56,352 nucleotides of DNA from Planctomycetota bacterium (GCA_021785435.1 JAJYFE010000005.1:1-56352); one strand, 5' to 3'. Positions 49,601-53,792 are shown, counted from the first letter of the stretch. The notes: generated from the letters alone by a model not told the origin. Translations and numbers: made by a program.

Positions 49601-50029
49601 TCAGGCCAGAAAGTCGAAGGGATTGTTGATCGCACCGCCCTGGCCCAGGCGGGCGAGGATTTTTTCCGCGGTTTGCAGCAATTGGCGGAGTAATTGCTGG
49701 ATTTGCTTCTCTTCGACAGCGGACGGCGGCGGCGCCGATGTGATGACGGAAGTCGGGGGCGCGGCACCCTGCAGCGCCCACGGGTCTACGGCCGCCGCGT
49801 CGGGACGCCCCTCCCCATGGCGTGGCGTTTCTACCCGCTGACTTCGCTGCTCTAACGCGGGGACAAAGCGGCGCTGCAACTGGCGCCATTGCGGTGCGGT
49901 AAACGGCCGATCTTGGCGCCGACGTGGCGTGGCACGATCGGACGTGACTGTCTCCGCGGGCCGCGGCGTTTCGCGGAGCTCCTTTGGGAATGGTTCGGAT
50001 TCGAGCGACTGGGGTTCGTTTTCGGTCAT
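49601..50029 (-). CDS. hypothetical protein downstream of the phage neck-tail module
   Basis: GGAGG SD upstream of the ATG; low-complexity N-terminus and amphipathic C-terminal helix. Confidence 0.55.
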   Translation of the reverse strand: MTENEPQSLESEPFPKELRETPRPAETVTSDRATPRRRQDRPFTAPQWRQLQRRFVPALEQRSQRVETPRHGEGRPDAAAVDPWALQGAAPPTSVITSAPPPSAVEEKQIQQLLRQLLQTAEKILARLGQGGAINNPFDFLA

Positions 50030-50115
50030 GGCATGACCTCCGGTTGTGGTTTAATTGGTATTGGCACTACCTGCGCCAGCCGTTTTTCAGCTGTGCCCCG
50101 CCGGCCGCGCTATAT

Positions 50116-50260
50116 CACAATCCTTGAAAATCTTCGCGCGGTGTGAAGATTTTTGTTCGTCATCGGGACAGCATGTTCGCCGGCGGACCTGCTACCCCCG
50201 GCAAGGTCTCCAAAGGCGACTCCTCGATCCGCCTCCGTGCGGACCGGGGGCTATCGTTTT
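50116..50260. repeat. ~140-nt dispersed structured repeat, copy 1 (copy 2 at ~56034-56210)
   Basis: Shared CACAATCC..AA.ATCT.CGCGC.GTG.GAAGATTTT hairpin and CCCCCGGCAAGGTCTCC.AAGGCGACTCCTCGATCC...GCCTCCGTGCGGACCGGGGG. Confidence 0.8.
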
Positions 50261-50315
50261 TGGGTTGTCGACGTAGTTTAGTCGCCATGGTGACCCGCGT
50301 CGGGTCATCGGCGAA

Positions 50316-50702
50316 TTATGAATTTATCCAGGTTTTGGTGTACGGCCCTACCGATGCGATCTCCGCGGTAAATACGCTGACCTGCCCAACCTGCAGGCGG
50401 ATCCGTAAGCGGGTGAGATTGAAATTGCCGCTGACGACGCAGCCAGCGGCGGCGGTAAAGGTAATCGGCACATTCGCGTGCATGGCGGCCAGGCCAGGAT
50501 CATAATCCGTCAGCCAGCCGATGACGGTGCCCCGCAACCGCATTCCGGTCAGCACGCCGCCGCCATAGCCCGCGTCGAGAAACGATTCCGCATCTTTTTC
50601 GCGGAAATCCTCCTCCAGTTGAGCCTCATAAATATTGGCGGTCACGCCCGGTGGCAAGGTGACCGAAGCCGTCAGGCCGGACAGGGGAATGGGGCTGGAC
50701 AT
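50316..50702 (-). CDS. putative phage tail tube protein (minimal)
   Basis: 128 aa, beta-rich, SG..ASV start, D..SF loop, final F.AEI.S.G strand; lies after the tail terminator gene; strong SD AAGGAG. Confidence 0.6.
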   Translation of the reverse strand: MSSPIPLSGLTASVTLPPGVTANIYEAQLEEDFREKDAESFLDAGYGGGVLTGMRLRGTVIGWLTDYDPGLAAMHANVPITFTAAAGCVVSGNFNLTRLRIRLQVGQVSVFTAEIASVGPYTKTWINS

Positions 50703-50840
50703 GGTTGGGTCTCCTTATTTAGCGGTCAGCATGCAGCTTGCGGTGACCAGCGGGCGGCTGGGCCGCAGGTTTTCAGTTTTCGGTCCAGCGGGGCGAAGCT
50801 TCGGGTTTCAGTTCTCAGTAGCGCGCCCCGCGCAGCCTGG

Positions 50841-51275
50841 CTACGCTCCCGCGGCGTTGAACACGGAACAAATGAATTTCACTTCCACGTGGTACACTTC
50901 GGTGTTGGCGGCGTCAAAACCAGCCAGGGCGGGTTGCGGGGCCGCGGTTTGCCGACAATCCAGCAGCGTCCCGACGGACAGGGGAAAGGAGGCCGCATCC
51001 AGCAGCGTTGTAAGTTGATCCGCCATGGCCAAAGCGGTGGTCAGGGCGCCGGCTACGCAGGTCAAGGTGAGGCTCGCCGGCGTGATTCGATCTCCGGCGA
51101 AGTCATGAGCGCCCGCTAATCCCGGCGTGCCGGCGGCAACATGCAAGGTGATAAACGGCATCGTCGCCGTTTCCGGGGCCCGGCTCAGGTAGACCGTCGG
51201 AGCGGTTCCGGCGATTTGCGACAGCGCACTATCGCTGCTGATGCGGTTAAGGATAGCCTGAATCAGTGGTTGCAT
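50841..51275 (-). CDS. phage tail terminator / tail completion protein (DUF3168, SPP1 gp17-like)
   Basis: L..AI..R...DSAL......VY...APE.A.MPFIT pattern and gene position. Confidence 0.75.
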   Translation of the reverse strand: MQPLIQAILNRISSDSALSQIAGTAPTVYLSRAPETATMPFITLHVAAGTPGLAGAHDFAGDRITPASLTLTCVAGALTTALAMADQLTTLLDAASFPLSVGTLLDCRQTAAPQPALAGFDAANTEVYHVEVKFICSVFNAAGA

Positions 51276-51286
51276 GGAGCCTTTCC

Positions 51287-51640
51287 TTAATCCTGCGGCG
51301 CCAGCCGCTGCGTATAGATCGCCCAGCCTTGGTCGCGATCCCCCAAATTGATCGTAAAGCGCACCTGGTAATAGTCGGTTCCATCGAAAATGCGGTCGCC
51401 GAAATCGGCGCCGAGGGCAGCGCCAACTATGATTACATGGGTAGCGCTCATGCTACGCCGATCCGGGGGCGCTGGCATGGCTAAGGCGCCTTGGCCGCCC
51501 TGCACCCGCAACGCCAGGATGGTGGCGGGAATATTTGCGGCGAGAATCCGCCATTGACGCAGCGCCTCGCCGTTGGGGCCGGTGGAGACGGTGGCGCGCT
51601 GCAGGCTGATTTGCCGGCGGCATAGCAAACGTAAACTCAT
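51287..51640 (-). CDS. phage head-closure/stopper protein (SPP1 gp16-like)
   Basis: ISLQR......PNGE....W......IPA.I and GDRI.DG...Y.V pattern; ATGA overlap with the upstream connector gene. Confidence 0.7.
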   Translation of the reverse strand: MSLRLLCRRQISLQRATVSTGPNGEALRQWRILAANIPATILALRVQGGQGALAMPAPPDRRSMSATHVIIVGAALGADFGDRIFDGTDYYQVRFTINLGDRDQGWAIYTQRLAPQD

Positions 51641-52470
51641 ACCAACACATCCCGGTAGCGATCCAAAATCGCCTTGATTTCCGGCGTAAAAATTAAATCA
51701 CCGGCCCGGGCGACATATTCATAGCCGACGGTCTTGCCTTGGGATTCGCGCTGCTTGCTCAAGTCCGGTTGGTTGAGCACGTTGCCGATGGCCAGGGCTG
51801 CGGCCAGCTGGATGTCCTGCGGAATCAGGCTGCCGCTGATCTGGCAGCCCGCGGCATGGGCATTGACAAAAACGGCGGCGAAACCCGTCGCGGTGGTGCT
51901 GATGACGCTGATGATTTCCTGACTGTCCTGATCCGGATCGATCGTTAAATCCATGCTCGGGGTGATGGTCCAGGGTTGGCCGTCAAAAAGGCCGCTCATG
52001 GCCTGCGGCGTAACGGAGGCCGGGCCGGCGGCAATGGCAGCGCTGGCGGTGGTCAAAAAACCGAAGCCGGCATTGTAATCCACCAAGATGGCATTCAGCC
52101 CCGCATAGGCGAACCCGGCGCGTTGGGCATAGCCACCGGGAAAGTTCGCGGTGAGCTCCGGCCTAAAGCTAAGCCGCCCGATTTCCGGGCGCAGGTCGAA
52201 TTGATCCACGGCGTAGTTGATGGGGTTGGGGCCTGTGGGGAAAAAGGTCACCGCATTGACGGCCAGCACCGGCGTGCGGCGAAGCATCAAAAACGGCATC
52301 GCACCGGCGTCGTGGTATTCCTGGTAACGGGCGGGCGTGAAACTGCGCCGACAATAACGCTCCACCGCCTGGCTGACGGCGGAAATCAGGCTGGCCAACA
52401 TGGCACTATCGGCGCCGCTGGCCGCAGGGGTCACGCTGGTGACATAAGCTGCGGTGACGAGATCAGCCAT
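51637..52470 (-). CDS. phage head-tail connector/adaptor (HK97 gp6 / SPP1 gp15-like) with an inserted domain
   Basis: MADLVT, D..L..LI.A.S..VERYC.RSF, L...PV..V..V, V.Y.AGF, IP.DI..A and P.IK.ILDRYR; 277 aa from ATG 52470. Confidence 0.8.
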   Translation of the reverse strand: MADLVTAAYVTSVTPAASGADSAMLASLISAVSQAVERYCRRSFTPARYQEYHDAGAMPFLMLRRTPVLAVNAVTFFPTGPNPINYAVDQFDLRPEIGRLSFRPELTANFPGGYAQRAGFAYAGLNAILVDYNAGFGFLTTASAAIAAGPASVTPQAMSGLFDGQPWTITPSMDLTIDPDQDSQEIISVISTTATGFAAVFVNAHAAGCQISGSLIPQDIQLAAALAIGNVLNQPDLSKQRESQGKTVGYEYVARAGDLIFTPEIKAILDRYRDVLV

Positions 52471-52853
52471 GAGAAAGCTATAGCGGCGGCCGCCGGGGGT
52501 AATAGGTGAACTGGCTTGACGCCGTTCCGGCAGGGCGCCGCCGGGCCAGGCGTCCGCGAAGAACTGGCGCCCCGCCGGTGATAAATTCGCGTCCCCCGAC
52601 TTGTGGTTGTTACGGGAGTGGCCGATAATCCTAAGTAGGAACGCAGAGTGAATGCGGCGATTGAAACGAGGCTTCCGGATGGGTCCCAGTAGCAGGCACG
52701 GTCCCCGTGCCGTGGCTTCTCCGCTTGGTTTAACGGCACGCGGAACGCGCCTTCTAGCGCATTCATTCTGCGTTCCCACTTAGCCACAAGGCTGGGCCAC
52801 AGGGTGTTGTTGGTGCTTGGCGCAATGCGGCGCGTTCTGGTTAGGCAGGCGCG

Positions 52854-53792
52854 GTGAGCTACGAGAGTGAAATGCTGCGGCGGTTTGGGATGCCGCCCCG
52901 GAAGCGGGTGTCGCAAACCCTGATGCGCGTGCTGCTCAAGCACGGTGGCGTGGTAAAAGAGTTCGCTTCCGGCCAGCAGGTGGTACGCGAAATAGCCGAT
53001 GAGCTTGGGCTGAATGAGCGGCAGCGCTCCGCCTGCCTGGAGACGGTGTACCGGAAGGAGGGACGCTTGAAGAAATCTCTTTTGTGGCATCGTCTGCTCT
53101 TCCGCGCGGCGGATGCCCTCGCACGACATGGGCTGGCCTCCCGTCCGACGCGGACGGCACGGCTTACCGAGCAACGGGAGTGGATGCTAACGGAGAAGGG
53201 CCTTGACGAAGCGCTCGGGCTGTGTGGTATCCCAGCCGAAAAGAAGGAGTCCCTCCCCCTTAGGTCGTACGAGGTTCAAAGGATCGCAAGCACGCTCGCA
53301 CGGTCCGCGCGGGCCGAGGATTACGATCCGTTCGACAGGGGCAAAAATACGGTCGTACGCCAAGAGAAATCCACGCTACGGGGCAGGGGGTTCCGCCAAG
53401 CGGTGATCGACGCCTATGATTGCCGCTGCGCGATCTGCGGGCTAAAAATAAGGTCACCCGATGCGTTGTCCTGGGAGGTGGAGGCTGCGCATATCGTACC
53501 CAGCGGGCTGCTGGGAAAGGACGATCTCTGCAACGGCATTGCGCTGTGCCGTCTTCACCACTGGGCGTTCGACGTGGGCTGGCTTACCCTTCTGGACAGC
53601 TACCGGGTCCAGGTCTCACCCCGCGTGGACGGGCTGCCGCCAACGTGGGGACGGATCGGAGGATACGAGTGCATCCGGGCGCTCGCGGGAAACCCCGGAA
53701 GAATACGCCTGCCGTACCGGGAGGAGATCTACCCGCATCCCAACGCGATGCGGTGGCACCGCGAGAACGTCTTTTACGGCCGGGATCGATGA
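52854..53792 (+). CDS. HNH endonuclease with N-terminal Mrr_N-like winged helix (putative restriction enzyme)
   Basis: IADELGL...QR, W.......A...L...GL and W.LTEKG; FRQAV..AY..RCAICG, EAAHI and NGIALC..HH.AFD.G. Confidence 0.85.
   Translation: MSYESEMLRRFGMPPRKRVSQTLMRVLLKHGGVVKEFASGQQVVREIADELGLNERQRSACLETVYRKEGRLKKSLLWHRLLFRAADALARHGLASRPTRTARLTEQREWMLTEKGLDEALGLCGIPAEKKESLPLRSYEVQRIASTLARSARAEDYDPFDRGKNTVVRQEKSTLRGRGFRQAVIDAYDCRCAICGLKIRSPDALSWEVEAAHIVPSGLLGKDDLCNGIALCRLHHWAFDVGWLTLLDSYRVQVSPRVDGLPPTWGRIGGYECIRALAGNPGRIRLPYREEIYPHPNAMRWHRENVFYGRDR

Follow-up and report, generated by a model that had tools for sequence, protein, structure and literature searches.

Gene transfer agents (GTAs) are defined, in the accessible text of PMC9662315, as phage-like particles made of proteins derived from tailed phages, whose genes are fully endogenised, often over several loci, and mostly inherited vertically, and which do not package their whole genome and carry mostly random host DNA that is delivered to cells. 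Besides RcGTA of Rhodobacter capsulatus, BaGTA of Bartonella and VSH-1 of Brachyspira are named there as other GTAs, and the GTA-like contigs described in the available part of bioRxiv 2022.02.18.481119 are alphaproteobacterial. A literature search, with subscription journals and supplements outside its scope, returned no planctomycete GTA. BaGTA and VSH-1 were exapted independently and are laid out over multiple loci, and VSH-1 is inducible by DNA damage. Demonstrated GTAs come from few lineages.

Here we describe a dispersed set of phage-derived genes in a Planctomycetota genome (G000; 4.4 Mb, 94% complete) whose relatives indicate the class Phycisphaerae and bacteria not yet in culture; part of the set lies on contig C209, the whole of which constitutes the window, i.e. 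the 56,352 nucleotide stretch of DNA that was analysed. The set resembles RcGTA in its siphophage-type neck, its stopper-terminator-tube order and its putative short tape measure (available part of PMC7296036), and resembles RcGTA and its alphaproteobacterial relatives in being endogenised over several loci and inherited vertically (accessible text of PMC9662315). Unlike RcGTA, it belongs to another phylum and apparently stems from a separate phage ancestor, its core is split into four or more operons, a glycosyltransferase is encoded in its capsid operon, and it appears to be controlled by a sigma pair of its own, preceded by an SOS-like box. At the level of genes it shares with BaGTA and VSH-1 an independent domestication and a multi-locus layout, and no run-off replication module is co-inherited with it. 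Our preferred reading, to which we assign a probability of roughly 0.55, is that the set builds a short-tailed GTA-like particle that packages host DNA and is likely induced by damage via its own sigma factors; we favour gene transfer over other functions because the genes for terminase, portal, stopper and tip are maintained, and because nothing for phage replication or excision is linked to them. Half or more of the window stretch is held by 11 sequencing runs from five studies, one of them the possible source sample; those with labels come from mine drainage, sediment or mine tailings, and no RNA dataset is among the listed runs.

Four co-oriented, uninterrupted ORFs occupy the minus strand at positions 50316-52470, as a preliminary description of this DNA had stated, and its functional calls were largely borne out. 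The head-tail adaptor (P0001, 277 aa, 51637-52470) matches phrog_442 with E 1.6e-18 and PF05135 with E 0.07 only. Its stop overlaps the start of the stopper or head-completion gene (P0002, 117 aa, 51287-51640, minus strand) as ATGA, confirming the proposed coupling; the window protein gave no HMM match as a query, and its identity is backed by PF05521, found in 12 of 15 aligned homologs. The tail terminator or completion protein (P0003, 144 aa, 50841-51275, minus strand) is recognised by PF11367 (E 1.3e-6). The non-contractile tail tube protein (P0004, 128 aa, 50316-50702, minus strand) has no HMM match at all, and its predicted siphophage tube fold is suggested by an AlphaFold model (pLDDT 68) with nine Foldseek hits at E<=0.001, all to tube or tail chains from Sf11, lambda, RcGTA and monocin, as well as by the ESM Atlas, which assigns PF06199 at 0.96. 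Tube and stopper alignments, used as HMMs against PDB sequences, produced chance hits only. The gene order had been likened to that of RcGTA, and the order itself stands; it is a weak argument because siphophages ordinarily have this order with one gene more, and because sequence similarity to RcGTA is low, the tube proteins being 13% identical in superposition. PF04883, the HK97 gp10-like family, found nothing in G000. Orthology with the RcGTA family is likewise not indicated by the adaptor, which scores 14 bits against the 39-bit cut-off of TIGR02215, a model that presumably covers the RcGTA adaptor.

The limits drawn in the preliminary description hold for these four genes but have to be widened by a promoter-like motif at 52476-52505 and by a fifth gene at 49601-50029. 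The latter (P0005, 142 aa, minus strand, with a GGAGG ribosome site) is named by its position and, with weak sequence support, is probably a miniature tape-measure protein. In 13 of the 16 genomes that carry the module, an ORF of 106-277 aa, mostly 106-190 aa, follows the tube gene directly or behind a chaperone-like gene, and 12 of these 13 ORFs end in similar NPFxF-like tails; no such candidate was seen after the tube genes of G006 and G020. The chaperone-like gene of G002, G018 and G012 contains a second overlapping frame, an arrangement that may be read as resembling lambda G/GT. In related viral contigs, ORFs of 460-610 aa precede the P0007 homolog, and the link between mini and long tape measures is not significant (BLAST E 0.006, hhalign 0.6%). 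The mini tape measure evolves fast under loose constraint (dN/dS 0.30-0.74). A long tape measure was not found in G000, where PF10145 had no match and PF20155 reached E ~0.28 only. RcGTA combines a tape measure of about 216 residues with five rings in its tube, according to the available part of PMC7296036, from which a tail of only a few rings may be predicted here by analogy. A tape measure of 106-190 aa would make it one of the shortest tube-based tails.

A multicopy MITE/REP-like host element at ~50108-50300 (no strand assigned; 165 BLAST hits across 102 contigs) separates the tube gene from the fifth gene. The short repeats noticed earlier in the terminator-tube spacer are present as two imperfect copies of 17 nt (50768-50784 and 50803-50819, no strand assigned, 82% alike); their 12-mer core occurs 15 times in G000 against 0.1 expected, so that they represent a host-wide repeat and no part of the module. 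The host-like base composition was confirmed, with a module GC of 0.60-0.63 against 0.615 genome-wide and a GC3 of 0.71-0.74 against 0.77-0.79 for rpoB/rpoC. Directly upstream of the module, on the plus strand at 52854-53792, lies an HNH endonuclease gene (PF13391), which G001 has too; its product resembles phosphorothioate-DNA restriction enzymes, with 89 bits against a cut-off of 180 for NF045808.

The window had been described as devoid of terminase, portal, capsid and integrase genes, and genome-wide searches indeed place capsid, portal, terminase and tyrosine integrases on other contigs, so the complementary head and packaging modules sought elsewhere in the genome are present. G000 encodes one HK97 capsid (C153:8862-10241, PF05065 9e-42) and one pair of portal (C86:13376-15025, PF04860 1e-39) and protease (C86:15297-16022, PF04586 3e-8). 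TerL (C153:170-1690, phrog_2 1e-28, PF04466 2e-8) was located by reading contig C153, PF03237 having missed the G000 terminase and PF03354 having given nothing in this genome. It is of the PF04466 type with weak PDB matches, including Sf6 gp2 (E 0.0013), a headful packager according to the available part of PMC7947584. TerS-like, ParB-like and ATPase genes stand at the C121 end; as the ends of C121 and C153 carry one common tandem repeat, the two contigs probably adjoin. This tandem array of ~39-bp units lies between terS and terL in G000 (C121 start / C153 start), and the two genes overlap directly in several relatives. The set further comprises small membrane proteins, a conserved two-domain glycosyltransferase adjoining the capsid gene, and the tail-tip candidates P0007 and P0008 on C153. 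The label tail-tip or hub for P0007 is a candidate assignment by position; its model (pLDDT 54) has no structural hit at E<=0.001, and it falls into unnamed, mostly viral clusters of the ESM Atlas. The chaperone and two Cys-rich tip genes of relatives were not found in the 94% complete G000, and neither was an endolysin linked to module genes; a holin match is weak (E 0.034), and the three amidase genes of the genome are found on different contigs. The capsid operons of G013, G007 and G021 contain variable genes of 500-680 aa ahead of the glycosyltransferase (L093 5447-9322, L103 10010-11593, L104 7964-9481), which may encode swappable surface or depolymerase proteins, and a similar-looking gene follows the capsid gene of the viral contig L255.

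These head genes bear directly on the idea that the window genes on their own form a head-less tailocin or monocin-like structure, i.e. a tail without head and packaging genes. The tube model does match monocin chains, but the adaptor and the stopper serve to join a head, the genes for capsid, portal, protease and terminase are inherited along with the window genes and have the promoter motif in common with them, and no long tape measure was found, which leaves a tailocin very improbable. The tail-derived particle that the preliminary description had offered as an alternative is likewise unsupported, since the terminase, portal and capsid genes inherited together with the module are intact.

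The same 16 of 41 genomes, which belong to a single family, are marked by adaptor, tube and P0007, with adaptor and tube gene as single copies. The module is therefore not strain-specific: carriers amount to 16 of the 25 family genomes, and P0007 occurs order-wide in 29 of 45. Within nine genera, 29 of 32 genomes have the latter gene, the remaining three being 62-67% complete, and none of the 13 genomes from eight other genera has it. Orthologs of capsid, portal and TerL were recovered in 15, 14 and 14 of the fetched loci of the 16 carriers, some of which are cut by contig ends, and one TerL copy in G019 has an internal TAA. Flanking genes vary between genera and the modules persist. Distant extra copies of P0007 were also seen in G047 and G053.

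Selection on the four window genes is purifying (dN/dS 0.02-0.29), contrary to the expectation of neutral evolution for a dying prophage, and pooled values for seven congeneric pairs range from 0.096 to 0.161. Pooled module dS in these pairs (0.13, 0.17, 0.95, 1.26, 0.32, 0.85 and 0.36) tracks rpoB dS in the same order (0.08, 0.16, 1.29, 1.12, 0.29, 0.65 and 0.33). The 16 carriers are monophyletic with a support of 1.000 on an RpoB+RpoC tree, for which G001 lacked RpoC and G012 contributed only a partial one. Trees were built by FastTree and compared by AU tests, with the second P0007/P0008 copies of G012 excluded and G016 left out of the RpoB-only tree. The expected congruence with the host tree was found for 15 of the 16 carriers but not for G015. 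Without this genome, host and module distances correlate with r 0.915 (Mantel p 0.0002), or 0.855 when each genus is represented by a single genome, and the AU test rejects neither topology (p-AU 0.15 and 0.45). With it r falls to 0.52, or 0.05 for single genomes per genus, and the test rejects both trees (p-AU 0.007 and 0.0016). This discordance means that at least one replacement or a long-branch artefact has to be allowed for.

Phages close to the set were not found: the capsid reaches at most 33% identity in 50,697 phage records, and the adaptor has no relative in IMG/VR. Nearest outside the clade are a second copy in G012 and the IMG/VR contig L255, a candidate virus with a 61% identical capsid that holds terS, terL, portal, protease and capsid in one run, the last four being 49%, 46%, 61% and 61% identical. 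In L260, L264, L271 and contig C561 of G012, a tape-measure-like ORF of 460-690 aa stands ahead of the P0007 homolog. On the latter contig (L195), a distant second P0007 follows a tape-measure-like ORF of at least 687 aa near an integrase-like ORF, and it is probably a real prophage related to the ancestor. These viral and prophage relatives are contiguous, have long tape-measure-like genes and occur sporadically, in contrast to the host set, which is divided up, single-copy and miniaturised.

Purifying selection is known from defective prophages, and low dN/dS could be a viral leftover in a decaying or recently grounded prophage that was scattered by rearrangement and has no function. Such a reading would be favoured by that known selection, by the G015 copy, near-collinear on two contigs with host-like genes interposed and discordant with the host tree, by the second G012 copy with its long tape-measure-like gene beside an integrase-like ORF, and by the phage-like order of L255. 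Against it, open frames persist at dS >1 in several pairs, the genes are single copies whose dS tracks rpoB, and separated operons bear the same promoter motif, so that we strongly disfavour it. Nor does the set look like an intact temperate prophage, which would be contiguous and have an integrase, replication genes and a long tape measure; the integrase check covered tyrosine integrases, and none of the seven matches in G000 falls on the four module contigs.

Set against the definition of GTAs, the genes are of tailed-phage ancestry and comprise a near-complete structural set from which particles, known here through genes, would be made. In this fragmented assembly they are endogenised on four contigs among host genes (three loci if C121 and C153 adjoin), and they diversified vertically with their hosts in the 15 congruent carriers. 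Packaging of the whole set in a single particle would seem unlikely given this scattering. That a phage-derived particle gene set has been domesticated and co-regulated is well supported, and we hold it with little doubt. The proposal of a domesticated, dispersed GTA-like set instead of a decaying prophage has thus gained support, DNA transfer itself being a prediction.

Co-regulation is suggested by the promoter-like motif TTACC-N14-CTATAG, located on the minus strand at 52476-52505 and ending 7 nt before the adaptor ATG; the adaptor start is likely leaderless. With the family consensus TTATC-N14-16-CTAYAG, it was found in 39 of 70 operon-leading upstream regions against 1 of 61 internal ones and an average of 0.5 in shuffled sequences, a control that overstates the motif because these very sequences had served to recognise the pattern by eye. 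Its end usually lies 6-8 nt ahead of the ATG, the capsid gene being an exception with ~110-150 nt. In G000 the motif fronts the capsid (25.5 bits), P0007 (24.2), portal (24.0), adaptor (21.4) and parB (17.0) operons, as scored with a matrix built without G000 and G001. A genome-wide scan was unspecific, as 29 sites exceeded 17 bits in the genome and 17 and 21 did so in two shuffled controls, and most other top matches belong to repeated elements in which no gene is evident. Near-perfect copies of the module promoter motif form the start of two families of non-coding repeats (contigs C61, C117, C217, C127 and C26, and contigs C170, C229 and C168). Between motif and capsid start, ~150 nt upstream of the ATG on C153 of G000 and in the corresponding leader of relatives, a GC-rich element of ~25 nt is conserved across genera and may form an RNA structure.

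The conserved TerS-like HTH gene, kept before terL together with ParB-like and ATPase partners, would also suit a site-specific packager, in which the TerS-like protein would initiate headful packaging from a single chromosomal position or from a resident mobile element, resulting in a lateral-transduction-like or helper activity instead of random transfer. An unrelated integrase-bearing element with a ParB-like paralog and an AAA_25 gene, apart from the domesticated set, does exist in G000 (C88, 2604-15000). A co-inherited passenger element was not found, however, and the AAA_25 gene that bears the promoter motif is patchy, occurring in 11 of 25 genomes, non-carriers included, which makes such a packager improbable. 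This AAA_25 gene on C215 was for the same patchiness rejected as a core replication gene despite its motif. Its neighbours are a 1538-aa ORF and an array of spaced repeats that has the look of a type V CRISPR locus (C215, 18410-26225).

Divergent from parB stand two genes with sigma-70 region 2 (PF04542). Full-length orthologs of the first occur in 10 of the 15 other carriers and in none of nine non-carrier family members (partial in two of the nine) or 16 other class members; the second follows the first in nine of these ten loci, and both are under selection (dN/dS 0.10-0.33). A sigma-like ORF of G015 had no tblastn match in G000. From their co-occurrence as the one ground, the sigma pair may read the TTATC-N14-16-CTAYAG promoters. 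In all 11 loci a GTTH-N7-GTTH direct repeat stands ahead of the pair; with a matrix built without G000, in which two of ten training sites are poorer second matches, the best G000 site reaches 28.6 bits against a shuffled maximum of 18.2. This strongest site is flanked by an SRAP gene (PF02586) and an imuA/imuB/dnaE2-like operon, which we read as imuA-imuB-dnaE2. The recA gene has a box match, while the region upstream of lexA in G000 has no box. Direct repeats of this type are LexA boxes in Alphaproteobacteria, and by analogy the box would be an SOS/LexA-type site in these bacteria.

In our preferred reading, DNA damage would lift LexA-type repression of the sigma operon, whereupon one or both sigma-like proteins would read the promoters of the adaptor, capsid, portal, tail-tip and parB-terS-terL operons. 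Protease-matured HK97 heads would be filled by the PF04466-type terminase, for which chromosomal DNA would be the only substrate, given scattered genes and no linked replication or excision module. Adaptor and stopper would then close the head, and the terminator would cap a tube of few rings, its length set by the 106-190 aa tape measure. The particles would exit by some lysis route and deliver DNA to kin as a repair template or for gene flow.

Data on inheritance, selection and regulation would fit equally well a domesticated, co-regulated particle with a non-transfer job, such as a stress-released decoy, a DNA-filled biofilm component or a killing particle. The tiny, loosely constrained tape measure and the loss of chaperone and tip genes in some lineages speak for it, and the shrunken tail and the glycosyltransferase beside the capsid gene would serve surface display. 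Purifying selection on terminase, portal, stopper and P0007 in turn fits DNA filling, sealing and ejection, and we therefore consider a non-transfer role unlikely, yet the most serious of the alternatives.

Taken to its full extent, the GTA-like reading becomes more tentative, and we put forward the following with reservation: an independent Planctomycetota GTA of mine-drainage and sediment bacteria, in which an SOS box would act on a sigma pair and this on leaderless late promoters, caught mid-domestication, almost tail-less and supplying kin DNA after damage. The carriers would then form a domestication series, from a near-collinear copy with chaperones in one genus to progressive scattering elsewhere, with the tape measure shrinking from ~700 to ~110 residues. 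If true, an independent origin with sampled stages would allow the route from phage to host organ to be tested through scattering, promoter gain by each fragment, chaperone loss and tail shortening. Prophage finders would miss scattered sets of this kind, so more may exist, and SOS-like control would bear on whether GTAs serve DNA repair or gene spread.
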